Source: Candidatus Woesebacteria bacterium
GTDB taxonomy: Bacteria; Patescibacteriota; Microgenomatia; UBA8517
Length of the DNA stretch: 64,000 bases
Direction: 5' to 3'
Assembly: GCA_013426185.1 (NCBI GenBank)
Contig: CP058602.1
Location: forward strand, 10,231 to 74,230
The position numbers and the translations under genes are program-made. Below are positions 811-60,747 of this stretch, in pieces. How positions within the stretch are numbered: the first letter of the stretch is position 1; each line of letters opens with the position of its first letter. The notes under the pieces are model-generated. The model was given only the letters and a program-made list of their open reading frames with translations, ran no database searches and was not told the DNA's origin.

Positions 811-1516
811 AGGTAAAAGGCGAGAGGTAAAAGATAAAAGAAATCGGCTGTCAGACATCGGATATCAGACATCGGACATCGGCTATCAGCTATCAGCTAT
901 CGGCCTTCGATTGTCGTCTATTGGTCGAAAGCTAGTCAGAAGCTAGTATTTTGTATTATGTATTATGCAGGAAAATGTATTATCCCCATAATACATAATT
1001 CATAATACTAAATTCATTATTATAATTATATTTTCCAAGCCGGGTTTGGAATCCTATTGCCAACGCGGGTCTGAGTAGACCAATTCCCAAATTTTAGATC
1101 AAAAATCAATATTCAAAGGTGTAAGTTGGTTGTTGGGTGTTGATTGTTGTCTGTTGTGAAAGTGACAAGGACGGACCTTGTCAGGTACCCTTTAAAGGTC
1201 AGACCTTTAAAGGGTCAGCGGCTATTCTCTAATCTGTAGTTTCTATTCTCTAATTCTTTATTCCTAGATCTTAAATCTAGATTCTATAATCTGTTTGTGA
1301 TTTGGAGTTTGTAAATTGTTTGTATATTGGAATTTGGAACTTGGAATTTGTTTGTGATTTGCAATTTGGAATTTGTGATTTGGAGTTTGTTTAGAATTTA
1401 GATATTAGAATTTAGAATTTGGAATTTGTATATTGGAACTTGGAATTTTATCTATAATCTATAATCTAATTAGAAGTTTTGACTTTTGAGTTTTAAGTTT
1501 TAAGTTAACTTAATTT
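811..1516. repeat. Composite low-complexity intergenic repeat array. Modules: ggtaaaagg; cggaYatcRg tandems; gtattatgtattatgcagg with its inverted partner; two palindromes; ctataatc; ttggaatttg; gttttgacttttgagttttaagtt
   Basis: Direct reading: the whole comEA-comEC spacer is built from 5-12 nt tandem units. The same modules recur in the same order at >12 other intergenic sites in this window. Confidence 0.85.
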
Positions 1517-2590
1517 ATGTTTAAATTTTTCTTTTGGCTTCTGGTTATTCTTTTGATCGTCTTTCGCTTCTTTTATCTTCGGCCCAATTTCATTGACGGC
1601 TCAAGAATTAGAATTTCGTCTGAAAGAATAGGAAGTGAGCCTTTGCGGTTTGAGAAAAGCCAAAGAATAACAATTCTTGGTCTTAAAGCTTATTTGCCTT
1701 TGTATCCTGAAATTAATTATGGAGATATGGTAACTGTGGAGGGAAGGGTAAACCTCAAGAAAAAAACGCTTGATGAGGCAAAACTTATTAAACTTGAAAA
1801 GGGCAATAGTTTTTATAAATTAAGAGAGCGATTGATTCTTTTTTATCAAAAATACCTTCCTGAACCTCATTCAAGTTTAGTTGCCGGAATGGTTTTGGGT
1901 TCAAAAGCAAGTCTGCCTTATGATTTTTGGCAAAATCTAAAAAAGACAGGCACGGCTCATGTGGTAGTTGCCTCGGGAATGAATGTTTCCTTAATTGCCG
2001 GATTTTTGGCCTCCTTTTTTATCATTTTTCTCAAAAGGCGCTATGCCTTATTGCTTTCGCTTTTGGGAATTTGGTTTTATGCTTTTCTTTGTGGCTTTGA
2101 GGCGCCTATCATAAGAGCTTCTATAATGGGTAGCCTTTCTTTCATTGCTGTTATTTTTGGCCGTATGAATTTAGCTTTAAGAGCTCTTTTTGTCTCGTTT
2201 TTTCTTATGCTTATTTTTAATCCTTACTTTATTTTTGATGTTGGTTTTATTCTTTCTTTTGCTGCAACTTTGTCATTAATTCTTTTTCAAAAGAAAGTAG
2301 ACAACTTTTTGAGATTCATTCCTTCTTTTTTAAGAGAGGGCTTTTCAACTTCTCTTGCAGCCCAAATCTTGGTCGCCCCGATACTTTATTTTACATTTGG
2401 ATACTTTTCGATATACTCGCCCCTGATAAACGGTCTTGTGCTTTGGACGGTTCCTTATATCACTATTTTGGGAATGCTTTCTGGCATTTTTTCCCTTTTT
2501 ATTCCTTTTTTGGGTAGATTTTTGCTTCTTTTGTCATATCCTTTGATTTTTTGGTTTGTAAGTTTGGTTAATCTTTTGGGAAGTATATGA
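1517..2590 (+). CDS. comEC: ComEC/Rec2 N-terminal part (DUF4131 plus polytopic competence membrane domain)
   Basis: Polytopic membrane protein with 'GTAHVVVASGMNVSLIAGFLA' ComEC competence-domain signature. The stop overlaps the next ORF start (ATGA). Confidence 0.75.
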   Translation: MFKFFFWLLVILLIVFRFFYLRPNFIDGSRIRISSERIGSEPLRFEKSQRITILGLKAYLPLYPEINYGDMVTVEGRVNLKKKTLDEAKLIKLEKGNSFYKLRERLILFYQKYLPEPHSSLVAGMVLGSKASLPYDFWQNLKKTGTAHVVVASGMNVSLIAGFLASFFIIFLKRRYALLLSLLGIWFYAFLCGFEAPIIRASIMGSLSFIAVIFGRMNLALRALFVSFFLMLIFNPYFIFDVGFILSFAATLSLILFQKKVDNFLRFIPSFLREGFSTSLAAQILVAPILYFTFGYFSIYSPLINGLVLWTVPYITILGMLSGIFSLFIPFLGRFLLLLSYPLIFWFVSLVNLLGSI

Positions 2591-3513
2591 ATATCAAGTT
2601 TTGGCGGTTTTTCTTTGGCTTTTTAGTTTTGTCTTCGGCTTTGGTTTGGCTCTTTGTCTTTCTTTCGCCTGATGACAAGTTTCATCTTGTCGCCTGTAAT
2701 GTGGGGCAGGGAGATGCGATTCTTGCTTATTATAAAGACAATCAAGTTTTGATTGATGGCGGGCCGGGGAATAGGGTACTTGATTGCCTTAGTCGTCATA
2801 TGCCCTTTTGGGATAGAAAGATTGAAATGGTCGTCCTGACTCATCCTGAGGCCGATCACTTTAGTGGTTTGATAGAGGTTTTTAAAAGGTATAATGTTGG
2901 AGCTTTTTTGGCATCTCCGCTTGAATCTAGCAGTCAAGGATACCAATTGCTAAAAGAAGAGGTGGGGAGTCGTGGGGTTAGGGTTATAGAACCGGATAGG
3001 GGTAAGAATATAGGAGTTGGTTTGATGCATTTTGTTATACTTCATCCATCGCATCAATTTTTGGCTGAAAATTCAAGCTTAGATACAACATCTCGTAATA
3101 ATCAAAATGTATCAGTCTTGGGTGCAAGAACAACTAATAGGAACTTGAATGAATTTTCAATTAACCTCATTTTAAGCTTTGGTGAGTTTGATGCTTTACT
3201 GACTGGTGATATTGTTCCTTCTGCTTCAGGTGAAGTTGAAGAGGCTTTTAAATCAGCTTTGGTGTTTATTAAAGACGGTAAGGTTGAATATCTCAAAGTG
3301 CCTCATCATGGTAGCAAAAATGGATTAACGCAGGATTTGCTGGAATTAGTAAGGCCTAAAATTGCTGTTATTTCAGTAGGCAAGAACTCCTATGGCCATC
3401 CAAGTCCTGAAATTTTGAAGATGCTTGAAAATGCTGGTGCTTCAGTTTTTCAAACTAAAGAGATGGGGGATGTAGAAGTAATCTCAGACGGCTTGAGGTG
3501 GAGGATCAGATAG
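2587..3513 (+). CDS. comEC: ComEC C-terminal metallo-beta-lactamase domain, encoded as a separate ORF
   Basis: 'LVACNVGQGDAILAY...IDGGP' and 'HPEADHFSGL' MBL-fold motifs. 4-nt overlap with the upstream ComEC membrane ORF. Confidence 0.8.
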   Translation: MNIKFWRFFFGFLVLSSALVWLFVFLSPDDKFHLVACNVGQGDAILAYYKDNQVLIDGGPGNRVLDCLSRHMPFWDRKIEMVVLTHPEADHFSGLIEVFKRYNVGAFLASPLESSSQGYQLLKEEVGSRGVRVIEPDRGKNIGVGLMHFVILHPSHQFLAENSSLDTTSRNNQNVSVLGARTTNRNLNEFSINLILSFGEFDALLTGDIVPSASGEVEEAFKSALVFIKDGKVEYLKVPHHGSKNGLTQDLLELVRPKIAVISVGKNSYGHPSPEILKMLENAGASVFQTKEMGDVEVISDGLRWRIR

Positions 3514-5875: not shown

Positions 5876-7141
5876 ATGAAGTACGAAAAACTCACTCTTA
5901 AAAATGGACTGCGAGTGCTTTTAATTCCAATGCCTTCTTTGGAGTCGGTAGTCTTGACTCTCTGGGTGAAAACAGGTTCTCGTTTTGAAGATGAAAAGAT
6001 ATCAGGAGTTAGCCATTTTTTGGAGCATATGGTCTTTAAAGGCACAAAAAGGCGTCCTTCAGCAAAAATTGTTTCAGCGGAAATTGATTCAATCGGGGCT
6101 GAAACCAATGCCGCAACTTCTAAAGAATGGACCAATTTTTATATTAGATCAAGAGTCGATGTTCTAGAGCGATCGTTTGATATACTTTCTGATATAGTTT
6201 TAAAACCGCTTCTTAAGGCTTCTGAGATAGAAAAAGAAAAGGGAGTGATTTTAGAAGAGATTGCGATGTATGAGGACACGCCGATGATTAAAATTTATGA
6301 TCTTTTTGATAATATTGTCTTTAAAGGTTCAAATTTAGCGCGGGATATCTCGGGCACGAAAGAAACAGTTAAGTCTTTGAAGCGGGAGGATTTTATCAGT
6401 TATCGTAGTAATTATTATTATCCTGAAAATATGGTTTTGACTTTGGCTGGTGGTTTTGAGAAAAAGAAAGCTTTGAGTTTAATAGAAAAATATTTTGGCT
6501 TTCTTGAGCCAACAGGCAAAAAGCCGCTTTCTGCTTCTGAAAAAATCTCTCAAGCAAAACCTGAAGTTGTTGTTAAAAACAAAAAAACCGATCAAGCTCA
6601 TTTGATTATTGGTTTTAAGGGCAAGCCCTATGGCTGGCAAGGGCGTTTTGGTGAGGCTGTTCTTTCCACGATTTTGGGTGGCGGGATGAGCTCTAGAATG
6701 TTTATTGAGGTCAGAGAAAAAAGGGGCTTGGCTTATTCTGTTAGAACCACTGTTGATCATGCTTTAGATAACGGTAGCTTTTATACTTATGCCGGAGTTC
6801 CGCCTGAGAAAATTAAAGAAGCTTCAAAGGTGATTCTTGATGAGTACTTTGGTTTGAGAGATAAGACTAAGAAAGTTACCAAGAAAGAACTTGAGAAAGC
6901 AAAGGAGTATTTGAAGGGGCATTTGGCTTTGTCGCTTGAGTCAACCAAAGCGGCAAGTGAATTTTTTGCTTTGGAAGAGCTTTATCTTGAGAAGCCTCAG
7001 CTTCCTGAGGATGTTTTTCGTGGCATTGATAAGGTTTCTCTTGATGATGTCTATCAAGTTGCGTCAAAATTATTTTTGAATGAGGGCTTGAATATTGCTG
7101 TTATCGGCCCTTATAATAGCAAGGATTTAAGGTTAATCTGA
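5876..7141 (+). CDS. M16-family (pitrilysin/insulinase-like) zinc peptidase
   Basis: Inverted zinc motif 'HFLEHMVFKGT' (HxxEH) near the N-terminus; ~420 aa two-domain architecture. Confidence 0.8.
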   Translation: MKYEKLTLKNGLRVLLIPMPSLESVVLTLWVKTGSRFEDEKISGVSHFLEHMVFKGTKRRPSAKIVSAEIDSIGAETNAATSKEWTNFYIRSRVDVLERSFDILSDIVLKPLLKASEIEKEKGVILEEIAMYEDTPMIKIYDLFDNIVFKGSNLARDISGTKETVKSLKREDFISYRSNYYYPENMVLTLAGGFEKKKALSLIEKYFGFLEPTGKKPLSASEKISQAKPEVVVKNKKTDQAHLIIGFKGKPYGWQGRFGEAVLSTILGGGMSSRMFIEVREKRGLAYSVRTTVDHALDNGSFYTYAGVPPEKIKEASKVILDEYFGLRDKTKKVTKKELEKAKEYLKGHLALSLESTKAASEFFALEELYLEKPQLPEDVFRGIDKVSLDDVYQVASKLFLNEGLNIAVIGPYNSKDLRLI

Positions 7142-7169
7142 CCCTTTAAAGGACAGTCCTTTAAAGGGT
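7141..7169. terminator. Palindrome accctttaaaggacagtcctttaaagggt between the M16 peptidase and ndk
   Basis: Perfect 12-bp-stem inverted repeat directly after the stop codon. Same motif family as 1187-1213 and 56484-56517. Confidence 0.4.
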
Positions 7170-7926: not shown

Positions 7927-9000
7927 TTATCTATCTGAAATTTTTTGCGTCCTATTGGAAAGAATAATAGGTTGTTCGTCAGAACTGCGCTTAAATTCTC
8001 TTGGATAGTTGGTATATCTTTCCATGATTTGCTCCATAGTCATATTGTTTGGTCTTCCAGATACTCCGTTTGGCGCGGGTGGAAGTATGCGTGGTAGACA
8101 GTACCTCATTGGATCGTTTGGATAAACGGCCATTTCCATAATAGGTCGACTCGTTCCACCGAAGGCAAATTCTAAACCAATACTCTTAAGTTCGTCTGGA
8201 GTGTATGCGCAAGCCTCATATGGCCATGATAGACACTTTACTTTGATACCGAGTCGTGATTCGATTTCATCCATAGATGAGCGAAGCTCACTTAAACCTT
8301 CACTTGCTTTTACCTTTGAGAAGTCTCTGTGCGTTTCAGAGTGGCATCCAAAGCTAAAAACGCCCGAAGAAAGCGCGCTTTCGAAAGTCTTCCAACAACG
8401 ATCTTCTTTACAAACAGAGGACTCACCTTTATCCATGTTTTTTGTCCAGATGAATGAGATAAAATGCATACCGTATTCTTTGAGCACAGGAACCATGCGG
8501 GGTAAGGAGTTGAGCGATGTGTTACCAGAGTCGGTGGTAAGAATAACGGAACGTCCGGGCAAATCAAGCTCTCCGTTTAGATATCCTACCAGTTCGTCCG
8601 CTGTTACCGCATGGAAATCATTTATTGCTAGCCATTCCATCTGTTTAGCAAAATATCCTGGATCCATATAATAACCGGGATACATGTTGTAATAATCACC
8701 ATGGTACTCGAATGCTGGTATAGATTTGGCAACACCATAAGCTTCTATTCTACGTTCCAGTTCAGCTTTGGGTTTTTTCGTAGGTGCCAATTCGGGGGGT
8801 TGTGTCGGCGTGACTTTTCGAGCAGAATCGGTCGTTTCAGCTTGAGCCTCTCCATTAGTGGGTGTTGGCTGTTGAGTTGGAAATAGCGTACTAGCTACTT
8901 TAAAAACAAAAGTAGGTTTAACAAATAGCTCCCAAGTCGTCGCACCGGTGAAAAGGCCGGCAAGTCTAATAAAACCTCTTCGGTCTATTCTATCGACCAT
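7927..9000 (-). CDS. Secreted polysaccharide deacetylase (CE4/NodB-like) with twin-arginine signal
   Basis: N-terminal 'DRRGFIRLAGLFTGA' Tat motif. 'LTTDSGN' and 'GCHSETH' match CE4 motifs 1 and 2. Confidence 0.65.
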   Translation of the reverse strand: MVDRIDRRGFIRLAGLFTGATTWELFVKPTFVFKVASTLFPTQQPTPTNGEAQAETTDSARKVTPTQPPELAPTKKPKAELERRIEAYGVAKSIPAFEYHGDYYNMYPGYYMDPGYFAKQMEWLAINDFHAVTADELVGYLNGELDLPGRSVILTTDSGNTSLNSLPRMVPVLKEYGMHFISFIWTKNMDKGESSVCKEDRCWKTFESALSSGVFSFGCHSETHRDFSKVKASEGLSELRSSMDEIESRLGIKVKCLSWPYEACAYTPDELKSIGLEFAFGGTSRPIMEMAVYPNDPMRYCLPRILPPAPNGVSGRPNNMTMEQIMERYTNYPREFKRSSDEQPIILSNRTQKISDR

Positions 9001-9104: not shown

Positions 9105-9340
9105 CAACGTAACTAGAGAGCAAAAATTTATAATTCAAGTTCAAGGTTAAAAATTAAAAGTTTGAATTTGCTAGTTTGTAATTTGAAAAATTGGATAATT
9201 GTAGAATTGTTTAAAATTTAGATATTAGAATTTGGAATTTTATTCTATAATCTGTATTCTGTAATCTGTTTCTGGACAAAGTCGGACTTTGTCCGATTGA
9301 CAAGGACGGACCTTGTCAATCCTATATTTTTCCTATATTT
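9105..9340. repeat. Modular low-complexity repeat array with palindromes ggacaaagtcggactttgtcc (9274-9294) and tgacaaggacggaccttgtca (9298-9318)
   Basis: Direct reading. Same module vocabulary (ttggaatttg, ctataatc, aaagtt) as the other arrays. Confidence 0.8.
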
Positions 9341-9565: not shown

Positions 9566-9616
9566 CTGGTATTGACAAGGACGGACCTTGTCAAGAAACT
9601 TTGATATAATCTTTTT

Positions 9617-10291
9617 ATGTCTGGCATTCTTTATATTGTTGCGACTCCTATTGGCAACCTTGAAGATATTACACTTCGAGCCTTAAGGATATTGAGAGAA
9701 GTCGACTTAATTTTAGCGGAAGATACGCGTGTTGCCAGTAAACTTCTGAATCATTATGAAATAGAAAAGCATATTTTGAGCTACCACCAACATAGCAGTG
9801 AGGAAAGAAAGCTTGAGATTTTAAGGGAGCTTCTTCTGGGTAAGAAGATTGCCTTAATCACTGATGCAGGTACACCCGGAATTTCTGATCCAGGCAATGA
9901 GCTAGTTGATTTTATTTATAAGAATTCTGATTCAGTCAAGATAGTTCCTGTTCCTGGACCTTCAGCTTTGACTGCCGCACTTTCAGTTTGTGGCTTCAGG
10001 ACAGATAAGTTTGTCTTTTTGGGCTTTTTGCCTAAAAAGGGAAATTTGGGTCTTTTTGAGTGGCTTAAAAAGGGTGGTTTTACCTTTGCTTTTTATGAAT
10101 CACCAATGAGAATTTTAAAGACTCTAGATTTGCTTTTGGAGAATTTTGGAGAGGAAAAGAGAATAGTTGTCGCCCGGGAATTAACTAAAATTTATGAGAC
10201 TCTCTATCTTGGCAAAATTAAGGAAATAAAAGAGAAGCTTGTAAGTGACAGATTGAAGGGGGAAATAGTGGTTATCGTTGAGGGTAGTTAA
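9617..10291 (+). CDS. rsmI: 16S rRNA (cytidine1402-2'-O)-methyltransferase RsmI (tetrapyrrole-methylase fold)
   Basis: 'LYIVATPIGNLEDITLRALRIL...LILAEDTR' N-terminal signature of RsmI. Confidence 0.85.
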   Translation: MSGILYIVATPIGNLEDITLRALRILREVDLILAEDTRVASKLLNHYEIEKHILSYHQHSSEERKLEILRELLLGKKIALITDAGTPGISDPGNELVDFIYKNSDSVKIVPVPGPSALTAALSVCGFRTDKFVFLGFLPKKGNLGLFEWLKKGGFTFAFYESPMRILKTLDLLLENFGEEKRIVVARELTKIYETLYLGKIKEIKEKLVSDRLKGEIVVIVEGS

Positions 10292-11959: not shown

Positions 11960-11984
11960 ACCTTTTTATTATATCTTTTTTGGT

Positions 11985-12790: not shown

Positions 12791-13804
12791 ATGATTGAAA
12801 TTAGGAAAAGAATTGCGATTGACCTTGGGACGGCAAATACTTTGGTTTGGCTCGCAGGTGAGGGAATAGTAGCTAATGAGCCGACTGTTGTTGCTGTTTC
12901 AGCTGAAGACAATCAGGTGGTAGCAGTTGGTGAGGAGGCAAAAAAGATGCTTGGCCGAACTCCTGAGAGCTTAATTGCCTCACGTCCTATGCGAGATGGG
13001 GTTATTGCCGACTATCAAATCACAGAAGCAATGCTTCGTTATTTTATTCAAAAAGTAAGCGGCAGATTTCAATTCTTCAGGCCTGATGTCATGGTTTGTG
13101 TGCCTGCTGGTTGTACTCAGGTTGAAAGAAGGGCAGCACTTGATGCTACTTTGTCAGCTGGGGCGGCTCATGCTTTTTTGATAGATGAGCCACTGGCCGC
13201 AGCAATTGGCGCCGGAATTCCTGTATCGGCTCCATCAGGGCATATGATTGTTGATATTGGGGGTGGTGCAACCGAAGCGGCTGTCATTTCTTTAGGCGGG
13301 GTCGTGGTTCACAAAAGCGTTCGTGTGGCAGGTAACAAGATTGACGAGGCAATTCAGGATTACTTGCGCAAGAAGTATAACTTGATAGTTGGTGATCAGA
13401 CCGCGGAAGACATCAAAATCAAAATAGGTTCTGCCACCAAAGATGTAAAGGAGGAAAAACTTGAAGTTTCAGGGCGCGACTTGGTTTTTGGTTTGCCAAG
13501 AAGCGTGGTTTTATCTTCAAAAGAAATCTGCGATGCAATTCGAGGCCCTGTCAACCAAATTATTGGTGCTGTTAAGGCTGTTCTTGAAGATACGCCGCCT
13601 GAGCTTGCGGCTGATATAATAGATAAGGGTATTATTATGAGCGGCGGAAGTAGTTTGCTGCGCAATCTTGATAGATACTTAACTTTGGAAACTGGGGTTC
13701 CAGCTCATGTGGCAGAAGATCCTCAGCTTTGTGTTGTCAAGGGCACTGGTCTTGTTCTTGAGAATATAGAACTTTGGAAAAGAAGTGTTACAACCAAAAG
13801 ATAA
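12791..13804 (+). CDS. mreB: Rod-shape determining protein MreB (copy 1)
   Basis: 'IAIDLGTANTLVW' phosphate-1 motif; actin-fold motifs throughout. Confidence 0.9.
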   Translation: MIEIRKRIAIDLGTANTLVWLAGEGIVANEPTVVAVSAEDNQVVAVGEEAKKMLGRTPESLIASRPMRDGVIADYQITEAMLRYFIQKVSGRFQFFRPDVMVCVPAGCTQVERRAALDATLSAGAAHAFLIDEPLAAAIGAGIPVSAPSGHMIVDIGGGATEAAVISLGGVVVHKSVRVAGNKIDEAIQDYLRKKYNLIVGDQTAEDIKIKIGSATKDVKEEKLEVSGRDLVFGLPRSVVLSSKEICDAIRGPVNQIIGAVKAVLEDTPPELAADIIDKGIIMSGGSSLLRNLDRYLTLETGVPAHVAEDPQLCVVKGTGLVLENIELWKRSVTTKR

Positions 13805-14273: not shown

Positions 14274-15191
14274 ATGGTTAAAAAAGACCGTAAACAGGTC
14301 AAAATATTAGATATTGCCTTGGATAGCACTAACAAGACTCAAGTGCTAAGGGAGGTCAGGGTCAAAATAGCTACTTTTGAGCGTAAAGAACCTAATTATC
14401 GGCCTTTTTATATAGTTACCCCCAATCCTGAGATTGTACTTGAAGCTTTGAAAGATAAAAACTTTGCCTTGATTTTAAATTCTGCCAATTTTACCATTCC
14501 TGATGGCATCGGCCTTTCGCAAGCTGCTTTTTTCCTTTCTCTTCCAGATTATAAATTTTTGCCCCTTAGAATTTTTATTTTACTTTTACAGTGGTTTTAT
14601 ACAGTGTTCTTGACTTGGTTTAAAAAGAAGCGGCTATTTGAAAAGTTAAATATCATCAAAGGCAGAAAACTCTTCACCGATCTTATTTTTTTGGCCAATA
14701 AAAAGGGGTGGAGAGTGGTTTTGGTGGGGAATCTTCAAGGAAGCGCGCAAAAGTCTGCTTCAATCATCAAAAATAGCTATAAGAAAGTCAAAGTTTTTGC
14801 TTTCTCGGGCTCGGCTTTGAATAGGGAAGGTGAGGCTTTGAATCAAGAAGAGAAAAAAGCTGAAAAAGAACTTCTTGATTCTATCAACAAGATTTCTCCA
14901 CATTTGGTTTTTGTTGGCTTTGGGGCGCCAAAGCAGGAGAAGTGGCTTTATCGCAATTTAGACAGTCTTAAAATCGGCGGAGCAATGGTAGTAGGGGGCA
15001 CTTTTGATTATGTTTCAGGCAAACTGTCCCTTCCGCCGCGTTTTTTGGAGAAACTGGGTCTTGAGTGGTTTTGGCGGCTTTTAGTTGAGCCAAAAAGATG
15101 GCTGCGTATCTTTCGTGCTGTCTTTGTATTCCCGACAAAAGTAATCTCTTTTAAATTGAAAAAGGGTCTTGACAGGGTTGCTAGCTTTTGA
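14274..15191 (+). CDS. WecB/TagA/CpsF-family glycosyltransferase (N-acetylmannosaminyl-transferase-like)
   Basis: 'FYIVTPNPEIV', 'FTIPDGIGL' and 'VFVGFGAPKQEKW' conserved blocks of the family. Confidence 0.7.
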   Translation: MVKKDRKQVKILDIALDSTNKTQVLREVRVKIATFERKEPNYRPFYIVTPNPEIVLEALKDKNFALILNSANFTIPDGIGLSQAAFFLSLPDYKFLPLRIFILLLQWFYTVFLTWFKKKRLFEKLNIIKGRKLFTDLIFLANKKGWRVVLVGNLQGSAQKSASIIKNSYKKVKVFAFSGSALNREGEALNQEEKKAEKELLDSINKISPHLVFVGFGAPKQEKWLYRNLDSLKIGGAMVVGGTFDYVSGKLSLPPRFLEKLGLEWFWRLLVEPKRWLRIFRAVFVFPTKVISFKLKKGLDRVASF

Positions 15192-43940: not shown

Positions 43941-44192
43941 ATGTCATACGTTTGCCAAATTTGCGGTAAAGGAAATGTGATGGGCCGTTCCCACACTCAC
44001 AAGCGAGGTGTGGCGGGAAAGAGGTGGAAAAAAAGGACCACCAAGACGCCAAGACTTTTTAAGGTCAACTTACAAAGGGTAACAGTTTTGGTTAACGGAG
44101 AAGAGAAGAAAATGCGTCTTTGCACAAAGTGCATTAAAAGGATTAAGAAGTATAAGTCGATTGGCGATTTTAGCGATATTTCTTTAGTTTAA
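43941..44192 (+). CDS. rpmB: 50S ribosomal protein L28
   Basis: 'MSYVCQICGKGNVMGRSHTHKRG...RLFKVNLQRV' L28 pattern. Start at the internal ATG at 43941. Confidence 0.75.
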   Translation: MSYVCQICGKGNVMGRSHTHKRGVAGKRWKKRTTKTPRLFKVNLQRVTVLVNGEEKKMRLCTKCIKRIKKYKSIGDFSDISLV

Positions 44193-45166
44193 CTCACAAG
44201 CGAGTTTTGAGGATATCCCACCTTAAATTGCTCCCAAGTTACTGGGTTTTTGCCTTCAAGCTGAACTTCATCTAGAACCAGATTTTTGTCTGACAAGTGG
44301 GAACTTATGATTTTCAATCTTTTAGTTTCGCCATTTTCTTGCAATTTAACCTCGGTCCAAGCGCATGGCCAAGGGTTCATAGCGCGAATGAAATTATTAA
44401 TATTTCTTGGACTAGCTTTGATCTCTTTATTTTTCATAAATTGAATTCTAAAATTACTCCCTTTAAAGGCCTGGCCTTTAAAGGTAGCCTGAAGGATGGC
44501 TGGGTCGATGAAAGCATAGTCTTTTTTTATCTCATAGCAAAATGTTGCTTTTTTATGATCTTGTTCTTTAAGATTAATTTTCCCTTCAAGGTAGGCAGGC
44601 AAAAGTTCAACCAATACTTGAGATGATCTTTCAAAGAGTCTTCTTCTTAAAGTTTCTGTGGTATCGTTTTCATCAATCTCCTCTTTAAACTGACAGACTA
44701 TCGGCCCATGGTCAAGAAGGCTGTCAAGTTTAATTATTGAGACTCCGGTTTCTTTTTTGCCAAGAGCAATTGCTGCCTGAACTGGTGATGCTCCTCTAAA
44801 TTTAGGCAAAAGCGAGGGATGGATGTTTAAGATTCCTTTTTTGAAGGAATCAATAACCCTTTGGGGAATTATCAAGCTAAATGAAGCTAAAATTGCCAAG
44901 TCGCTTTCAATGCCTGATTCAAGAAACTTATTCATATCATAAAAAACAGGAATTCTTTTCTGATAAGCCCATTTATCAACGGCTGAATAGGCAAGTTCTC
45001 CTTTTCTTCCTGCTGGTTTTGGAGCTTGGGTGATAACAGCGGCTATTATCTGGCTTCCGTCTTTAAATCTGAAATTTTTGTGTAAAGCCTCAAGGATAGG
45101 GACAACATAATCAGGTGTTCCAAAAAAGACTATCTTGGTGTTAATTATATTTCTACCTTTTCCCAT
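44189..45166 (-). CDS. fmt: Methionyl-tRNA formyltransferase
   Basis: 'IVFFGTPDYVVPILEAL' N-terminal formyltransferase fold plus C-terminal domain. Adjacent to def. Confidence 0.9.
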   Translation of the reverse strand: MGKGRNIINTKIVFFGTPDYVVPILEALHKNFRFKDGSQIIAAVITQAPKPAGRKGELAYSAVDKWAYQKRIPVFYDMNKFLESGIESDLAILASFSLIIPQRVIDSFKKGILNIHPSLLPKFRGASPVQAAIALGKKETGVSIIKLDSLLDHGPIVCQFKEEIDENDTTETLRRRLFERSSQVLVELLPAYLEGKINLKEQDHKKATFCYEIKKDYAFIDPAILQATFKGQAFKGSNFRIQFMKNKEIKASPRNINNFIRAMNPWPCAWTEVKLQENGETKRLKIISSHLSDKNLVLDEVQLEGKNPVTWEQFKVGYPQNSLVS

Positions 45167-47706: not shown

Positions 47707-48037
47707 AGATTAATTTTAGGTTTATTGAGGCTTTAAGGCAAGGGGAAAGCAGTCGGAGTTGGTCCTCGCTTAGAGCAAGGTTGGCCAAAGTTAGTCTCCA
47801 CCTGCGGCGGAGTTAGTCGAAGCTGGCAGGAAGCTAGTATTTAGTATTTTGTATTATGTATTATGCAGGAAATACAAGTAGGAAGTAGAAAGTAGTAAGT
47901 AGAAAGCAAAATTCATAAATCTTAAATCTTAAATCCTAAATCTAGATTCTATAATCTGTTTGTAATTTGGATCTTGGAATTTGTAATTTTAACTTTTGTA
48001 ATCCGTGACAAGGACGGACCTTGTCAACAAAACTAAA
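47707..48037. repeat. Modular low-complexity repeat array ending in the palindrome tgacaaggacggaccttgtca (48006-48026)
   Basis: Direct reading. Confidence 0.85.
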
Positions 48038-49249
48038 TTAGAGGGGAATGTTTGTGTATGCCACAACATGTGGTAGGCTAGAAAATGGAGCGGTAAGTAT
48101 TTTATCGTTTAAGAGATAGAACGGATTTCTTTTTTGATTTGCTTTGATGAAGCAAAGATTGAAGGTTTTGGCATATAGTTTTTCTATATCATTTTGATTG
48201 GGGTTTTTGTAAAGTTCCGTTTCAAAAATAGTTGTCCAAAAGGCAATTAGTGCTTTAGCTAAACTTGCTCTAAAAAGGTCTTCTGATAGATCTTTTAGAA
48301 GGGAGAATTCTATGTTTATTGCATCTTTCTCCTGAAAATATCTTCCTTTTTCAAGAGGATCTAGTCCATTTTGAAAATTTTTTAAAAAGCTGATTACGTG
48401 GCTCATCTCGTGTATAAGACCCATTATCTGATGGCGGAAGTTAGCATAGTTATCAATGGTTATTAAGAAGTTGTCTTTTGTCTTGTCGTATTTTATTGAT
48501 GTGGATTCGCCTGTTTTAATTTTTACTTTGGATTTAAAAGCAGAAAAGGATGGATATTTTTGGAACACGAAGTCAAGTGCTTCTTTTTGTTTTTCAAAGG
48601 GGAATTTTGCGAGCCTGCAAACAAAACAGGGTAGATTGTATTCTGAATAAAACCAAAAAGGCAAGTTGCCAGTATTAGGAAAAAGTTCATTATATTTTTT
48701 GATTGTTTTATATTTTTCGCTTTTAAATCTTTGAAAATCTTTTTTTGGTATTTTAAATTGCTTGAGAGAAAATTCTAATGGTGACATTTTTTCCTTCTTA
48801 AGAAAATATTCTATGCGAGTTGAAATTAGCCTGATGAATTTACTCTTAGCTTCTTCAATGGGGAAATTGAGGTCTTTCCATAATTTTTCCCTTTTGGCGG
48901 GAGAAGTATTGTTTATCTCTTGGTTGATTCTATAGAGGAGAGGAATAGGAAGTAGTGAGAAATATTCGGATATGGCTTGAAAATATGGTTCTGATGGAAA
49001 TTTTCTGCGATCAATTTTTATTATAGTTTTCCGAGCCAGATCTTTTTCTAGATTTTCCCTAACCCAATAGGTAATATAAGTTTCTTTACATGATGTTTTT
49101 GGCGATTCTAGTCTTGTGTAGTTTTTTTCTGCCTCCTTGATACCTGCCTTTGCTGTTTGTTTAATATTATCTAATGAAACATCTAAGCCTGCTTTTCGAT
49201 ATTTCATCTGATATTCTATTAATATTTTTTCTATTTTTTGTGAGAGCAT
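48038..49249 (-). CDS. Hypothetical protein with HExxH motif (possible zinc metallopeptidase)
   Basis: 'GLIHEMSHVISF'; otherwise unassigned. Confidence 0.4.
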   Translation of the reverse strand: MLSQKIEKILIEYQMKYRKAGLDVSLDNIKQTAKAGIKEAEKNYTRLESPKTSCKETYITYWVRENLEKDLARKTIIKIDRRKFPSEPYFQAISEYFSLLPIPLLYRINQEINNTSPAKREKLWKDLNFPIEEAKSKFIRLISTRIEYFLKKEKMSPLEFSLKQFKIPKKDFQRFKSEKYKTIKKYNELFPNTGNLPFWFYSEYNLPCFVCRLAKFPFEKQKEALDFVFQKYPSFSAFKSKVKIKTGESTSIKYDKTKDNFLITIDNYANFRHQIMGLIHEMSHVISFLKNFQNGLDPLEKGRYFQEKDAINIEFSLLKDLSEDLFRASLAKALIAFWTTIFETELYKNPNQNDIEKLYAKTFNLCFIKANQKRNPFYLLNDKILTAPFSSLPHVVAYTNIPL

Positions 49250-51009: not shown

Positions 51010-51246
51010 TTATTTTAATGGATGACGGCCCGGATCCCCTTTGGGAACATTCTGGTCTGTTAAGTGAATATTGGGTTCTCCCCTTAAGTTAAAGCTTACT
51101 CGTATGCCTTTATCATCAGGACCAGTTTGCCCCAACAGTGTAAGATGACCGGTGTTAGGATCAAGTATATTTATCTGTCTCCACCAGTCATCTCCCATTA
51201 TTAGAGAATCTCGTTGAGAGTTAAACAAGTCGAATAACTTAGTCAT
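51010..51246 (-). CDS. Small protein (78 aa), paralog of 53413-53652, behind a conserved ~200-nt leader
   Basis: GGAGGTG Shine-Dalgarno, then ATG (MTKLF...). The tracked ORF begins 4 codons upstream (MRCEM) in both paralogs. Confidence 0.45.
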   Translation of the reverse strand: MTKLFDLFNSQRDSLIMGDDWWRQINILDPNTGHLTLLGQTGPDDKGIRVSFNLRGEPNIHLTDQNVPKGDPGRHPLK

Positions 51247-51258
51247 CTCACACCTCAC

Positions 51259-51480
51259 TTGTTAGAAATTCTTGACCGATGATGTGATTCGAGCTCTCCA
51301 GGCTCTCAACTTAGAATTACACCTCCAAAACTGAATTTAAATGTGCTTAGGATTTTTTCCCCGCTGTTGAGGTAAATCCTTATTTTTCTTTTAGCAAAAA
51401 AGGATAAAAGTCAAGTTATGGGGTGATTGATGGTGGTGGACAAGGTCCGACACTGTCCTGACAAGGACGGACCTTGTCAA
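51259..51480 (-). promoter_or_regulatory. Conserved 5' leader / candidate cis-regulatory RNA, copy 1. Contains TTGACT -35-like box and an aggatt..aatcct hairpin; begins with the tgacaaggacggaccttgtca palindrome
   Basis: About 80% identical by eye to 53665-53880 over ~190 nt. Hairpin stem conserved while loop sequence differs. Confidence 0.4.
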
Positions 51481-53412: not shown

Positions 53413-53652
53413 CTATCGATCGAATGGCCCTTTGATGGTGCCTCTTAGAAGATCAATGGAGATTCCCAGGTCTTGGTAAACGCCATGATAGTCAATTACC
53501 CGACCATTCTTGTCAAAGGTAATCGAAGTTCTTGCGTTGAATTCTTTGTTGAATTCTGTTATCTTTGTGGTCCCATCTTGAGAACCCCATATGTTAGCAC
53601 CACCTTTTGATCCCCGGATCTCAATATCTGGTTTTCCCTTAGGGTCAGACAT
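53413..53652 (-). CDS. Small protein (79 aa), paralog of 51010-51246
   Basis: Same GGAGGTG-ATG context. Sequence blocks appear circularly permuted relative to the paralog. Confidence 0.45.
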   Translation of the reverse strand: MSDPKGKPDIEIRGSKGGANIWGSQDGTTKITEFNKEFNARTSITFDKNGRVIDYHGVYQDLGISIDLLRGTIKGPFDR

Positions 53653-53664
53653 TTCACACCTCAC

Positions 53665-53880: not shown

Positions 53881-53887
53881 TGGGGGG

Positions 53888-55189
53888 TCAGAGTAAAATT
53901 TGAGCTAATTCATTTGCTTTTTCTTGGCTTATGTCTCCAAGGAAATTTACATTCATTTTTTCAGATTTAAATATTTCTTGCGCCATCTTTTTTATTTCCT
54001 CCATCTTTACTTTACTTCTTTCTTTTGAATAATCCTCAGGACTCCAGATTTCTCCATAGTCCATCAGCTCTCCAATCAGATAGCCTGATATAGATTCGGG
54101 CGTCTCAAAGCTCATATACAACAATAGGTTAAGATATTTCTTTATTCTTGAAAATTCTTCCTTTTTTACACCATTTTCTTTTATATCTTCAATTACTGAT
54201 TTTATTTTTCTAAAAGTTTTCTCTAGATTATTTATATCTGTTGATCCATAAATACTAAGGTAGCCTAGGTAGGGGAAAAGTGAAGTGTAACTACCACAAT
54301 CATATGTTAGACCCTCGGTTTCTCTTAGTGCGAGCCACAATCTTGAGAGATGACCTTTGCCTAATATGTTGTTTAAGATATTGAGAACAATCTCGTGGTG
54401 TCTTTCTACTTCACACCAGCCGAAGGCTGGAAAGTTGATATTGAAATTGATTTGTTTACTTTCATTTTTTTGTACATAGACTGTAAACTTTGAATATCCA
54501 TCCTCTTGATATTTAGGGAAAACAGTTTTCTTACCTTTTCTTTCCTTACCGAAAGTCCTTTTGATTTTGCTTGTCACTTTTTTCTCATCAAATTTTCCAA
54601 TTACCGAGATTACCATGTTGCTTGGATTTAAAAATCTCTTCTTCCAGAGAATAATGTCTTTGTCTTGAATAGATAGAATGTGCTTGATATCACCGGTTAC
54701 AGGCAACTGGTATTGCGGTATATCTTTAAAACGATTTTGCCTTATTTTTTGATTAAAGACCCAAATAGGGTCTGTGTAATTATCATTGCATTCATTGATT
54801 ATGATACTTTTTTCTTTTTCAAAATCTTTTTTAGTGAAACTTGACCTAAACACGACTTGATATAGCAAATCCACGGCTTTGTCTGCGTTAATATAAGGCG
54901 TTTTTATCCAGAATAAGGTTCCTGCTAGAGTTGTTTTCGCGTTTGTACCTCCTCCTATCTCATATATTCTTTTAAATATTTCCTGATTTGTTTTGAATTT
55001 TTCTGTTGAAGAGAAAGCAAGGTGTTCCAAGAAATGAGCGATGCCTATATGCTTTTCGTCCTTGGCATAATAATTTCCGGATTTGATTGCAGAGGCTATA
55101 TAAATAGATTGTATTTCTTTGATAGGATAAAGTATTAAGGTTAATCCGTTTTCTAAAGTTATGATCCTGTACGCATTTTTTATTTTCAT
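53888..55189 (-). CDS. M16-family zinc peptidase (second copy in window)
   Basis: 'HFLEHLAFSSTEKF' inverted zinc motif; ~430 aa. Confidence 0.75.
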   Translation of the reverse strand: MKIKNAYRIITLENGLTLILYPIKEIQSIYIASAIKSGNYYAKDEKHIGIAHFLEHLAFSSTEKFKTNQEIFKRIYEIGGGTNAKTTLAGTLFWIKTPYINADKAVDLLYQVVFRSSFTKKDFEKEKSIIINECNDNYTDPIWVFNQKIRQNRFKDIPQYQLPVTGDIKHILSIQDKDIILWKKRFLNPSNMVISVIGKFDEKKVTSKIKRTFGKERKGKKTVFPKYQEDGYSKFTVYVQKNESKQINFNINFPAFGWCEVERHHEIVLNILNNILGKGHLSRLWLALRETEGLTYDCGSYTSLFPYLGYLSIYGSTDINNLEKTFRKIKSVIEDIKENGVKKEEFSRIKKYLNLLLYMSFETPESISGYLIGELMDYGEIWSPEDYSKERSKVKMEEIKKMAQEIFKSEKMNVNFLGDISQEKANELAQILL

Positions 55190-55330
55190 ATTTGTATTTT
55201 ATCATTTGATAGTGATTATGAGAGCGAATGGACAATGTCCAACCCTGTCCTGACAAGGACGGACCTTGTCAGTTGGACGGCTAAGTTATAAAGTAGGAAA
55301 AGGATGTTGTTTAGTTTTTATTTTTAATCA

Positions 55331-56347
55331 ATGTCTAATTTTAAGATTCAACCAATGATATCTTATTGGGCTAATTGTTTTTTCTTCATTTCCAACCTCT
55401 CGGAGTGGCATTGGAGCACTAGGAAGTTTTATAACAGTTATTGGTTGTCGAGAACAGGTAAATTAACTTCAACTGAAAGCAAAGCCCTTGCTAAAGCTAA
55501 GGCTATTTTTGCTAAATATGGCTTTGGTGATAGATATTGGGGTTTGGTCTTTTTGAGGGAGCCTGAAGAGGAAGTTTGGGATAAAGCTAAAAGATTTTTT
55601 GAACCACAAGAACTTAAGAGTTTAGAGGAAATATATAAAGTTTTTAAACCTCGTTTTGAGGCAATCTGGAAAACTGACCGCGAAAATTTATTGGCTTGGC
55701 GTGATCGCTTTAATGATATAAGGGATAAATTGTGTCCCGATGCCTTGCTTTCTGATCTTGATGCTCTCTTTTTTGGTACTGAAAGAAAAAGAAAGCATAA
55801 ATCTGTAAAAGTAGTGTTTTTAATAAGCTTTCCTAATAAATTTGCTGGCGGCGGTGGCAACTTGGGACCAGGAGTAGTTACCCTAGAGCTTTCTCAGACA
55901 CCTTTAGAATATGTCCGTCCTGTTGTTCTGACTATGTGGCATGAGATAGCTCATTCTCTTTGGATGATAAATGGATATGAGAATATGGTGGAGAAGTTTG
56001 TTAAAGAGAAGGATGAAATGCTTAATTTTGATGATAGCCCTTCATTGAGGGTTTTTGTTAACGAAGCGGTCGCCGAGTCGCTTTTGCCTCATGGGTATTT
56101 GGCTCAAAAGCATTTTAATTTTCCATCTGATGAATATTTTTCAAAGCAGGAAAAGATTGTTCTAAGAAAAGAAAACAACGTGCTGGAGAAATGGAGGTTG
56201 TATTCTGCTTCTCGACTTGTGCCTTTGGCTAGAAAGTATGTTGAGGAGGGGAAGGTATTAGATAGCGCTTTTCTTGATAAAGTATACGAGCTTTTTGTTG
56301 AAGCAAGAGATCTAATTGGTATAGGTCAACTTAAAGGCCAAAATTAG
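55331..56347 (+). CDS. Hypothetical protein with HExxH motif
   Basis: 'LTMWHEIAHSLW'. Confidence 0.4.
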   Translation: MSNFKIQPMISYWANCFFFISNLSEWHWSTRKFYNSYWLSRTGKLTSTESKALAKAKAIFAKYGFGDRYWGLVFLREPEEEVWDKAKRFFEPQELKSLEEIYKVFKPRFEAIWKTDRENLLAWRDRFNDIRDKLCPDALLSDLDALFFGTERKRKHKSVKVVFLISFPNKFAGGGGNLGPGVVTLELSQTPLEYVRPVVLTMWHEIAHSLWMINGYENMVEKFVKEKDEMLNFDDSPSLRVFVNEAVAESLLPHGYLAQKHFNFPSDEYFSKQEKIVLRKENNVLEKWRLYSASRLVPLARKYVEEGKVLDSAFLDKVYELFVEARDLIGIGQLKGQN

Positions 56348-56389
56348 GATGATTGAATAGGGACAGGTTCGGACCCTGTCCTGAAGTTT

Positions 56390-56830
56390 ACTACAAATAC
56401 ATCGATGTATTTATAGTTGAAGAAGTTGAAAGTTAATTTGCTAGATTTTAATTGCGTAAGATGACAAGGACGGACCTTGTCAAGCACCCTTTAAAGGCCT
56501 GGCCTTTAAAGGGTGGTCGAGGATGGCCGGAGCTGGTAGGAAGCTAGTATTTAGTATCTTGTATTATGTATTATGCAGGAAATACAAGTAGGAAGGAGAA
56601 AGTAGTAAGTAGAAAGCAAAAATAAAAAGTTCAAAATTAAAAGTTCAAAGTTGGAATTTACTAGTTTGTAATTTGGAAAATTGGATAATTGTAGAATTGT
56701 TTAGAATTTAGGATTTAGAAATTAGAATTTGGAATTTGTATATTGGAATTTGTATATTGTATATTGTTTGTAATTTGTGATTTGTTTATTGGAATTTGTA
56801 ATTTTATTCTTTGTCCTATGTTCTTTGTTC
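56390..56830. repeat. Palindrome cluster (double palindrome; tgacaaggacggaccttgtca; caccctttaaaggcctggcctttaaagggtg) followed by a modular low-complexity array
   Basis: Direct reading. Confidence 0.85.
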
Positions 56831-59644: not shown

Positions 59645-60716
59645 AAAAAATTATCTAATTGCTCTTTCTGCTTTTGTTCCTTTTGGACCAGTTCGTCTTT
59701 CTTTGCTTTTATCCTATTTTAAGACTGCCAAAAAAGTTTGGAGTCTTTCTCTTTCTGATTTGGCGGAAGTTGGAATTAAAGAAAAATTGGCTTTGGAATT
59801 TATTTCTTTTCGCGACAATTTTAATATTGAAGCTTACCTTGAGAGACTTAAAAAATTTGGCATTGACTGTGTTATCAAAGGAGAAGAAAATTATCCCAAA
59901 AATTTGGCTGAGATAGATTCAGCGCCTTTAGTCTTGTATGTTAAAGGCAGTTTAAAGTCGTTAGACACCGAATCAGTAGCAATAGTGGGTTCAAGGAAAA
60001 TGACTTCATATGGCAGAGAGGTTGCGGAAAAATTTGCTTATGAGATTTCCCAAGCTGGAGTAACAATTATCTCAGGCCTGGCAAGAGGGATTGATACCGT
60101 GGCTCATAAAAGCGCTCTTGAGGGAGGAGGAAGAACAATTGCAGTTGTTGGCTCTGGCTTAAACAGAATTTATCCTCCTGAAAATACCAATCTTGCTTTA
60201 TCAATTGCCAAAGACGGTGCTTTAATTTCTGAATATCCGCTTGATTATCCTGCTTTAAGACTTAATTTCGCTGCAAGGAATAGGATAATTTCAGGCCTCT
60301 CAAAGATAGTTCTCGTGATTGAAGGAGCTGAAAAAAGCGGCACTTTGCTTACTGCTTCTCATGCGGCAGAGCAGGGAAGAACTGTTTTTGCGGTGCCGGG
60401 TCAAATTACCTCTCCTCTTTCTTTTGCTCCTCATTTTTTGATTCAAAACGGAGCAAAGATTGCCTTTTCACCTCGCGATATAATTTCAGAGCTAGATCTT
60501 CAATTTAAAGTTGATACAGCTGAAGTAGAAAAAGTTATGCCCAAAGACAAGGAAGAAGAAAAGATACTTTTGGCTTTGGAAAGTGAGCCTTTGCATCTTG
60601 ATGAAATTGCTAGAATTTGTAGCTTTTCAGTTTCTCTGGTATCATCTAAACTTATTGTTATGGAAATGAAAGGGATGGTCAAAAGCTTAGGCAGCGGCAT
60701 CTATAAGAAACTATAG
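59637..60716 (+). CDS. dprA: DNA processing protein DprA (Smf)
   Basis: 'VAIVGSRKMTSYGREVAEKFAYEISQAGVTIISGLARGIDTVAH' Rossmann-like DprA core. Conserved dprA-topA linkage. Confidence 0.85.
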   Translation: MTEKNYLIALSAFVPFGPVRLSLLLSYFKTAKKVWSLSLSDLAEVGIKEKLALEFISFRDNFNIEAYLERLKKFGIDCVIKGEENYPKNLAEIDSAPLVLYVKGSLKSLDTESVAIVGSRKMTSYGREVAEKFAYEISQAGVTIISGLARGIDTVAHKSALEGGGRTIAVVGSGLNRIYPPENTNLALSIAKDGALISEYPLDYPALRLNFAARNRIISGLSKIVLVIEGAEKSGTLLTASHAAEQGRTVFAVPGQITSPLSFAPHFLIQNGAKIAFSPRDIISELDLQFKVDTAEVEKVMPKDKEEEKILLALESEPLHLDEIARICSFSVSLVSSKLIVMEMKGMVKSLGSGIYKKL

Positions 60717-60747
60717 GATTGACAAGGACGGACCTTGTCACAAAAAT

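Follow-up and report, generated by a model that had tools for sequence, protein, structure and literature searches.

Hairpin repeats in a Candidatus Woesebacteria genome as probable REP-type partners of a RAYT-like Y1 transposase

Background

Repetitive extragenic palindromic (REP) elements and the REP-associated tyrosine transposases (RAYTs) have, to our knowledge, been studied almost solely in Proteobacteria. REPs are palindromes of about 20-40 nt, the two superfamilies of which are marked by an unpaired GTAG or CGTC tag at one end (PMC3733652), and the extragenic flanks of RAYT genes hold 16-mers of high genomic copy number (PMC5581495). Here we describe a 21-nt hairpin repeat, TGACAAGGACGGACCTTGTCA (family A), and its sister families B and C in a stretch of 64,000 nt from Candidatus Woesebacteria (contig CP058602.1, positions 10,231 to 74,230 of the forward strand; hereafter the window), together with a Y1 transposase gene, CH104c_0002, which lies upstream of it. 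These palindromes are very probably REP-type elements, the DNA partners of the RAYT-like Y1 (HUH) single-stranded DNA (ssDNA) transposase encoded by that gene. Our literature search found nothing linking RAYT or REP to Patescibacteria, Woesebacteria or the candidate phyla radiation (CPR).

The system is of a known kind. As in the REP/RAYT systems described previously (PMC3116915, PMC5581495, PMC3733652), the palindromes are short (21 nt), GC-rich, over-represented, mostly extragenic and often located just 3' of genes; the Y1/HUH gene is flanked by the most abundant 16-mers of the genome, each paralog has a palindrome family of its own, the gene neighbourhood appears conserved, and the best fold match of the modelled protein is 4ER8. 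There are, however, clear departures. The GTAG/CGTC tag is absent, and the copies are mostly singlets, whereas those of Pseudomonas and E. coli form REPIN doublets, in which two inverted REPs with a short spacer between them make up the replicating unit; the two copies upstream of the Y1 gene are direct repeats, and the nine family A copies in the window all have the same orientation. In-frame copies within genes make up a quarter of the distinct sites, and a co-varying hairpin lies in the reading frame of the transposase itself, right after the catalytic tyrosine motif. In addition, the host has a 0.8-Mb CPR genome, and the protein (approximately 230 aa) has an extra C-terminal region and scores under the NCBIfam cut-off for RAYTs.

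Three other systems invite comparison. The IS200/IS605 elements (IS608 and ISDra2) share with this system the HUH/Y1 fold, one-strand subterminal hairpins at both gene ends, mostly in direct orientation, and an orientation bias with respect to the replication strands, as expected of single-strand transposition. Unlike these elements, the Y1 gene was not seen as a multi-copy mobile unit in the loci examined and its neighbours are kept in four species, while the dispersed item is a bare 21-nt hairpin. The motif at the tyrosine is YIHxNP, as in RAYTs, whereas that of IS200 is Y-x3-Q. Rickettsia palindromic elements, reportedly about 100-150 bp long, in frame in genes and with no known cognate transposase, are similar in being palindromes that add a peptide segment to genes of a reduced genome; the unit described here differs in its length of 21 nt (7 codons) and its tie to a Y1 gene. 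The small dispersed repeats of Nostoc and Anabaena are reportedly hairpin repeats of 21-27 nt in genomes with tandem heptamer arrays, and are not known to be linked to a transposase. Heptamer arrays would be common to those genomes and the window, while the phylum differs and the repeat sequences are unrelated.

A dispersed family of hairpin repeats

Family A occurs in the 64 kb as eight exact copies and one copy with a single mismatch (Table 1), where none is expected and where 100 dinucleotide-preserving shuffles yielded none. The original prediction, made from the letters of the window, had counted nine identical copies; the repeat is real at nine sites, only eight are identical (the copy at 20199 has the mismatch), and the copy placed at 9564-9584 is 9 nt off, its actual position being 9573-9593. 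As predicted, the 21-mer folds as ssDNA into a hairpin with an 8-bp stem and a 5-nt ACGGA loop (-7.3 kcal/mol, z = -5). This hairpin is stable on both strands, and the loop reads ACGGA on the plus strand in all nine copies. The DNA hairpin energies of families B and C are -8.9 and -12 kcal/mol, respectively. The 16-mers of family A, with nine copies each, are among the commonest in the window and are equalled only by words of heptamer repeats. A scan of the window at Rfam gathering thresholds returned six tRNAs only, with no match at the hairpins.

The related families were collected with a scan for perfect hairpins and a looser catalogue of variants. Family A and its stem variants form a superfamily, KGACARRG-WCGGA-CYYTGTCM, in which the stem changes in pairs (AGG/CCT, GGG/CCC, AAG/CTT) while the loop is kept as WCGGA; the consensus of family B is GGACARRG-TCGGA-CYYTGTCC. 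Family C has the form ACCCTTTAAAGG-N5-CCTTTAAAGGGT, with half copies at 20223 and 51483. The variants listed in the original prediction were largely borne out: the hairpin at 9274-9294 is family B GGACAAAGTCGGACTTTGTCC, further B copies are present near 35687, 36887 and 56361, and the third palindrome family is family C (1187-1215, 7141-7169 and 56485-56515). The site given as 30552-30566 holds a partial B copy only. That prediction had missed two degenerate inverted B copies, at 51438-51458 and 55230-55250, as well as the decayed remnant in queA (41413-41427).

The ComEA and TopA proteins of the window are identical to QLG69241.1 and QLG69307.1, both of which are encoded on one 818,817-bp contig of Ca. 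Woesebacteria Ch104c. A scan of species-representative genomes gave six exact matches to the 21-mer in Ca. Woesebacteria Ch104a (complete genome CP055308.1, 802 kb) and one in each of three other contigs of metagenome-assembled genomes (MAGs). One Ch104a locus (L001; related loci bear L numbers throughout) is syntenic with 26-36.6 kb of the window at 67-83% nucleotide identity. A cyanobacterial origin of the window, which its heptamer arrays might suggest, is ruled out by this synteny and by the exact matches to Ca. Woesebacteria proteins. Searching metagenomes with the 19-nt core gave 118 stretches; with the window included, these amount to 169 occurrences at approximately 108 distinct sites, a sample of related loci that was ascertained by the motif itself; viral contigs gave no match to the 19-mer core. 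Locus L129 (22 kb), which was not chosen by the motif, has three exact copies. The approximately 108 distinct sites have unrelated flanks, beginning with the base next to the 21-mer, which indicates that nothing but the hairpin makes up the repeat unit; the base at +1 is A in 57% of them. The copy at 9573 is degraded to TGACCAGGACGGATCTTGTCA in two close strains, L018 and L073.

The density of the repeat bears on the proposal that it is a DNA uptake signal, similar to the DUS and USS, that marks the DNA of its own species. Copies adjoin comEA/comEC and dprA, related species share the conserved motif, and CPR bacteria rely on competence machinery, all of which would suit such a signal. DUS and USS frequently occur as inverted pairs, at a density of roughly 1 per kb. 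Here the frequency is far lower, at approximately 1 per 7 kb in the window and 6 in the 802 kb of Ch104a, and the arms are not enriched alone: outside the palindromes the 8-mer TGACAAGG was observed twice against 1.5 expected. Moreover, the exact loop is conserved and strand-specific, and the motif is tightly tied to a transposase gene. An uptake signal is therefore very unlikely.

A RAYT-like Y1 transposase gene in the same genome

Three of the genic family A copies fall in one gene family, whose products share the pattern ...MPNHFHLL...SRYIHLNP..LTRTDLV..WPYSSY. The protein matches Pfam Y1_Tnp (PF01797) with 42-50 bits against a cut-off of 23, and its best and sole NCBIfam match is 'REP-associated tyrosine transposase' (NF047646, E 1e-10 to 1e-15). 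The residues H88-F89-H90 and Y148, the tyrosine of RYIHLNP, are invariant in 19-29 homologs. The best fold match in the PDB of an AlphaFold model based on 29 homologs (pLDDT 79) is 4ER8 (E 2e-7, TM 0.68), the E. coli REP-associated tyrosine transposase (TnpA-REP) bound to a REP hairpin; the TnpA proteins of IS200, IS608 and ISDra2 are ranked behind it.

A tblastn search for the gene found none in the window; it located the gene in L002, L019, L045, L065, L099, L104 and L047, fragments in L107 and L020, and more distant paralogs in L036, L118, L031 and L066. QLG69234.1 (CH104c_0002), to which the L019 protein is 99% identical, is encoded on the same 818,817-bp contig as the ComEA and TopA of the window. 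In Ga0101944_10002047, a contig with 94-96% identity to the window, the Y1 gene is located about 9 kb upstream of the position matching window base 1. The original prediction had suggested REP-like elements possibly bound by a RAYT and had proposed a search for a RAYT gene in the rest of the genome; QLG69234.1, approximately 9 kb upstream of the window, is such a gene, and the RAYT-like gene carries this hairpin. Its neighbours are the same in L002, L019, L134 and L133, and in both the lineage of the window and L133 it lies about 9-10 kb from leuS-comEA-comEC (L133 1-10687; window 1-2590). RAYT genes are typically vertically inherited in single copy and keep a stable neighbourhood, and the arrangement seen here may point to long vertical inheritance, like that of domesticated RAYTs.

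Hairpins at and inside the Y1 gene

In several species, Y1 homologs of 48-100% protein identity have a hairpin just upstream of the ATG, in a version that is specific to the species. Two direct A copies end 4-14 nt before the Y1 ATG in L002, L019, L045, L065 and L104, while L099 has one inverted A copy upstream of the gene and one A copy past the stop. The hairpin just past the stop belongs to family B in L002 (two copies), L019 and L065 and to family A in L045 and L099; L104 has none. A further A copy is in frame within the gene in L002, L019, L045 and L099, with a one-base variant in L065 and none (lost) in L104. Paralogous Y1 genes have palindromes other than these at their flanks, the CCCTTTAAAGG family of the original prediction included. 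Family C hairpins border the L047 paralog at both ends and a C copy lies in frame inside it, and other palindromes flank the paralogs of L036 and of L118, L031 and L066. Each Y1 gene is thus accompanied by its own palindrome, which follows the logic of REP/RAYT systems (PMC3116915, PMC5581495).

The same arrangement was found in homologs whose DNA was fetched independently of the motif (L132, L133 and L134). L133, the Y1 protein of which is 55% identical, has three copies of TGACAGGGACGGACCCTGTCA, one lying 18 nt ahead of the ATG, one in the reading frame and one that overlaps the stop codon. The corresponding three sites of L132 and L134 are occupied by hairpin versions peculiar to each. In L133, the internal and flanking copies match base for base. 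In L019 and L045, which belong to the lineage of the window, the internal copy is identical to those upstream of the gene and to the dispersed REPs, and in L132 and L134 it has a different loop.

In 19 aligned homologs, the conserved segment that follows YIHLNP reads L-T-[R/G]-x-x-[L/P]-V-x-YPYSSY. Hairpin A encodes LTRTDLV at this place, and B-like hairpins encode LTGSDPV or LTGTDPV. We rejected the idea that the internal copy is a recent insertion of seven codons, as the segment has the same length as in the E. coli RAYT and is conserved across the family. The residues R..L or G..P report stem pair 6-16 as A-T or G-C, and the loop codons vary freely. Among 102 homolog clusters, R..L was found in 49, G..P in 34, G..L, which corresponds to a G-T wobble, in 8, and R..P in 5 (Fisher p = 3e-13, a value inflated by the relatedness of the sequences). 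Such residue covariation is the pattern that would be predicted for a conserved DNA or RNA hairpin within the reading frame.

We know of no description of a REP/RAYT system with a hairpin embedded in the reading frame of the transposase. Tentatively, we regard it as a reasonable possibility, short of a probable one, that throughout this Patescibacteria family of RAYT-like transposases the cognate REP hairpin in the frame of the gene acts as a master or template copy or as an autoregulatory site, so that enzyme and repeat co-evolve, with strand-specific spread reaching even essential genes of a 0.8-Mb symbiont-type genome. The internal hairpin offers a testable handle on how RAYTs and their repeats stay matched over long times, in terms of a master copy, autoregulation or gene conversion.

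Positions relative to genes

Gene positions were judged with a simple caller of open reading frames (ORFs), and random placement in the same loci served as the expectation. Long ORFs contain 27 of the 108 sites (25%), where 74 were expected, and the other 81 are extragenic against 34 expected. Among the extragenic sites, 28% lie at most 15 nt from a stop codon (7% expected; maximum of 300 simulations, 20%) and 20% at most 15 nt from a start codon (7.5% expected). Both a frequency far above that of shuffled sequence and a bias toward gene boundaries, the two checks put forward with the original prediction, are therefore clear. Two of its individual placements also held: the copy between dprA and topA is 3 nt (GAT) past the dprA stop and 7 nt before the topA ATG, and the copy at the gene ending at 48038 is 11 nt beyond the stop of that minus-strand gene. 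The copy said to follow the M16 peptidase gene is in fact 61 nt upstream of its start, as this gene (53888..55189) is on the minus strand.

The enrichment past stop codons could mean that the hairpins were primarily selected as 3'-end elements of transcripts, acting as terminators free of a U-tract or protecting mRNA from 3' exonucleases. The hairpin is stable on either strand, and E. coli REPs are known to stabilise upstream mRNA (PMC3733652). However, no T-run was found 3' of any family A copy, the base that follows is mostly A, and of the five family A copies in the interval 45-64 kb none was scored as terminator-like; the terminator-like option of the original prediction thus fares worse than the REP one. 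Many copies are located upstream of genes, in divergent spacers or within genes, and a 3'-end role leaves the linkage to the Y1 gene and the strand bias unexplained. As a primary function it is thus unlikely; a role of the hairpins at mRNA 3' ends would be compatible with the REP/RAYT assignment as a secondary effect.

All 27 genic copies are in frame, as a unit of 21 nt equals seven codons. They encode LTRTDLV, DKDGPC, TRSVLV or DKVRPC; four of the six reading frames of the 21-mer are open, and the frame with TGA is avoided. The hosts of in-frame family A copies include serS (three species), queA (two species) and an nth-like gene. The presence of a 21-nt element in serS, queA, nth and fmt, together with insertions and deletions of 3-8 kb that direct copies mark, points to a source of protein variation and rearrangement in very streamlined genomes.

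The genic copies also bear on the view that the repeat is an operator, namely TGACA-N11-TGTCA bound as double-stranded DNA by a dimeric transcription factor or a nucleoid protein, perhaps of a competence regulon. A perfect inverted repeat would suit such a site, copies are present in the comEA-comEC and dprA-topA spacers and 4-23 nt upstream of several starts, and the left arm with its preceding T reads TTGACA, similar to a -35 box, with one promoter-like match (TTGACA-17-AAAAAT) at 60720. Nevertheless, about 150 copies agree in every one of the 21 bases, those of the 5-nt spacer included, among species that are approximately 70% identical in their genes. The two arms change together, which is needed by a folded hairpin and not by fixed protein binding; a quarter of the sites are in frame in genes, and more than a quarter of the extragenic copies closely follow a stop codon. 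The distance to promoters is inconstant, and promoter-like sites number 51 against 48 in shuffles. The nucleoid-protein option of the original prediction therefore fits poorly, as does a transcription-factor site, and we consider an operator very unlikely. Use of the hairpin as a -35 box was likewise rejected, because the spacing to -10-like hexamers is inconsistent between sites. The operator, canonical terminator and DNA-uptake-signal readings each fail one defining test.

Strand bias and a possible mechanism

GC skew is positive over nearly the whole window. For distinct sites with a clear local GC skew, we counted whether the ACGGA loop is on the G-rich or the C-rich strand. Dispersed copies gave a ratio of 52:18 in favour of the G-rich strand (p = 6e-5), and those in the lineage of the window gave 20:0; for the copies at Y1 genes the ratio was 1:9 (9 of 10 informative sites discordant). 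A universal rule linking the repeat to the replication strand was rejected, since the window has 9 of 9 copies on one strand and Ch104a has 5:1 in the opposite sense, mainly because Y1-gene copies follow their gene. In some Microgenomates, the GC skew departs from the usual two-replichore pattern (PMC7143001). The strand bias of the dispersed copies would fit a transposase acting on one strand of ssDNA at the replication fork, as in IS200/IS605.

By analogy with E. coli TnpA-REP and the TnpA proteins of IS200/IS605, the Y1 protein may recognise the folded hairpin on one ssDNA strand, for instance at replication forks, and cleavage and rejoining at the foot of the hairpin would then copy or move the 21-nt unit. 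Copies would persist where the harm is small: past stops, before starts, in long repeat-filled spacers and in frame in tolerant protein loops. Direct copies, once present, could serve as breakpoints of deletions and insertions. Binding, cleavage and mobilisation by the Y1 protein through a single-strand mechanism, like any benefit to the host, are in this respect putative.

Several observations weigh against the REP/RAYT assignment. Only 0-1 of the 108 sites have GTAG, CTAC, CGTC or GACG at 10 nt or less from the hairpin, the flanks being nearly information-free, and the copies are mostly singlets instead of inverted REPIN doublets, with rare inverted pairs such as that at 624/672 of L129. At orthologous sites in serS and queA the repeat is 21/21 identical, although the flanks are 72-80% identical between species; purifying selection or homogenisation would fit this better than plain selfish spread, in a comparison biased by the retrieval of these loci via the exact motif. 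The strand bias is weak in the other lineages (32:18), with gene orientation as a possible confounder. In the 5-20 kb examined of each of L132, L133 and L134, hairpins were seen at the Y1 locus only, and this lack of dispersed copies suggests that genome-wide spread is specific to certain lineages, that of the window included. As for the protein, its NF047646 score of 40-58 bits is under the curated cut-off of 80, its sole sequence match in the PDB is a weak one to 4ER8 (E = 0.29), and a profile search of PDB sequences missed 4ER8, returning weak ISDra2 and spurious methyltransferase matches. Finally, joining the flanks of each copy retrieved no precise pair of filled and empty sites, in a search that was uninformative as the loci had been selected by the motif; it is because such a pair is missing that transposition is a step we infer.

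Structural variation at hairpin copies

The region from a Wzy-like gene to mreB (window 47707-56810, about 9 kb) is divided into blocks by four A copies in direct orientation (48006, 51459, 55251 and 56462). L112 is without exactly 48027-51479 (3,453 bp): the left flank of the copy at 48006 is joined to the right flank of that at 51459, with one copy at the junction. In L129, which was obtained via TopA homology (78% identity), the distance from the Wzy-like gene to mreB is 147 nt and holds one A copy; about 8.4 kb of the window bounded by copies thus corresponds to a single copy there. The region 47707-56810 is a variable island bounded by REPs. The dprA-topA spacer also varies: the window and L012 have an A copy in it, L131 has a variant with two mismatches, and L129 and L130 have nothing but heptamer arrays.

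These breakpoints are what would be expected if the hairpins were sites of a site-specific recombinase, similar to integron attC, that delimit mobile multi-gene blocks, exactly one block being absent from L112 and the whole region, but for a single copy, from L129. However, no integrase or recombinase gene is tied to the copies (the rve_3 fragment at 20772 is the sole ORF of the window that resembles an integrase), most copies are solitary and many are within genes, and deletion between 21-bp direct repeats requires no dedicated recombinase. We therefore regard this explanation as very unlikely; REP-type elements that act secondarily as recombination substrates are compatible with the data. 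In practical terms, the motif and the Y1 gene could be used as lineage markers for the binning and strain typing of Woesebacteria, and they may explain assembly breaks at such spacers.

Two further variable segments adjoin hairpins. A 1.6-kb segment (7689-9331), which contains a polysaccharide deacetylase gene (7927..9000) and the hairpins B 9274 and A 9298, is replaced by approximately 285 nt in L073, which is 96% identical on both sides. An insertion sequence remnant at 20380-21071, an rve_3 integrase-core fragment (20772..21071) preceded by a degenerate coding sequence, adjoins the A copy at 20199.

Sister families and other repeats in the window

The coordinates of the hairpins are collected in Table 1. 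The peptide encoded by the C copy in fmt is also encoded by the internal C copy of the L047 Y1 gene.

Table 1. Hairpins of families A, B and C in the 64-kb window
Feature	Position	Strand	Context
Family A, exact	1163..1183	+	inside 707-nt comEA-comEC spacer; family C hairpin next at 1187
Family A, exact	9298..9318	+	family B hairpin (9274-9294) 3 nt upstream
Family A, exact	9573..9593	+	23 nt before ATG of methylase gene 9617..10291
Family A, one mismatch (last base C)	20199..20219	+	half family C hairpin follows
Family A, exact	48006..48026	+	11 nt past stop of minus-strand gene 48038..49249
Family A, exact	51459..51479	+	degenerate inverted B copy 51438-51458 abuts
Family A, exact	55251..55271	+	divergent spacer between M16 peptidase gene (minus strand) and gene 55331..56347
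Family A, exact	56462..56482	+	followed by C hairpin 56485-56515 and heptamer arrays; upstream of mreB
Family A, exact	60720..60740	+	fills 31-nt dprA-topA spacer
Family B, GGACAAAGTCGGACTTTGTCC = GGACAAAG-TCGGA-CTTTGTCC	9274..9294	+	stem differs from family A by compensatory substitutions
Family B, AGACAGGGTCGGACCCTGTCC = AGACAGGG-TCGGA-CCCTGTCC	35686..35706	+	in frame at 3' end of ORF 34888..35739; peptide RQGRTLS
Family B, one stem mismatch	36887..36907	+	upstream of tRNA-Trp
Family B, one stem mismatch	56361..56381	+	13 nt past stop of gene 55331..56347
Family B, partial copy only	30550-30570		
Family B, degenerate, plus-strand loop TCCGA	51438..51458	-	directly abuts A copy at 51459
Family B, degenerate	55230..55250	-	directly abuts A copy at 55251
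Decayed remnant GGACAGGCTTCGTCC in queA	41413..41427	-	same codon position as exact in-frame A copy (DKDGPCQ) in L028 and L068
Family C, ACCCTTTAAAGGT-CAG-ACCTTTAAAGGGT	1187..1215	.	
Family C	7141..7169	.	overlaps stop codon of gene 5876..7141
Family C	44458..44486	.	in frame in fmt 44189..45166 (minus strand); encodes TFKGQAFKG
Family C	56485..56515	.	14-bp stem; 2 nt past A copy at 56462

Other palindromes were also observed. A further hairpin family with a 12-bp stem, ACTACAAATACA-TCGA-TGTATTTGTAGT, occurs at 29393-29420, 36917-36944 and 56388-56415, often near B and A copies. The sequence TCAACACCGGGTGTTGG, located at the extreme 3' end of topA (62710-62726) and again at about 32907, matches the palindrome that flanks the distant Y1 paralog of L118, L031 and L066, which indicates that the genome has at least a fourth REP-like family. 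A recurrent module of about 60-100 nt, GTATTATGTATTATGCAGGAAAATGCATTATCCCCATAATACATAATTCATAATAC, was seen at approximately 950-1010, 12190-12240, 15650-15720, 18730-18790, 35770-35830 and 42510-42580; it forms a long, imperfect palindrome, occurs in either orientation and has no Rfam match, and it could be another repeat family or a small RNA.

At 12534-12604 and 15868-15938, the hairpin pairs CCACGGCC-TAAA-GGCCGTGG and CCACGCGC-TAAA-GCGCGTGG form inverted repeats around a 3.3-kb block that contains a second mreB (12791..13804) and a WecG-type glycosyltransferase gene (14274..15191). This module is 97-99% identical in L026, L057 and L080, which match the window at this module only.

Two similar leaders of 200 nt (51259-51460 and 53665-53860) precede the minus-strand genes 51010..51258 and 53413..53664, and are probably the 'conserved leaders' of the original prediction, which had placed hairpins at their 5' edge. 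The distal edge of each is a B+A hairpin pair, the second pair being decayed, and neither leader has an Rfam match.

Spacers of at least 60 nt total approximately 13.6 of the 64 kb, which is high for a 0.8-Mb CPR genome. Imperfect tandem heptamer arrays, with periods of 7, 14, 21 and 28 in Tandem Repeats Finder (TRF), crowd the spacers at 810-1516, 10389-10738, 11960-12790, 18454-19039, 30744-31127, 42231-42610, 47810-48005, 56520-56810 and 62731-63442, as well as L129 9781-10000 and L130 3865-4000. The units include TCGGACA/TCAGCTA, TTTGGAA/TTTGTAA, AAGTAGA, GGTAAAA, TGTATTA, TCTATAA and GTTTTGA. These arrays resemble the short tandemly repeated repetitive (STRR) heptamers of heterocystous cyanobacteria, and they may be more unusual than the hairpins.

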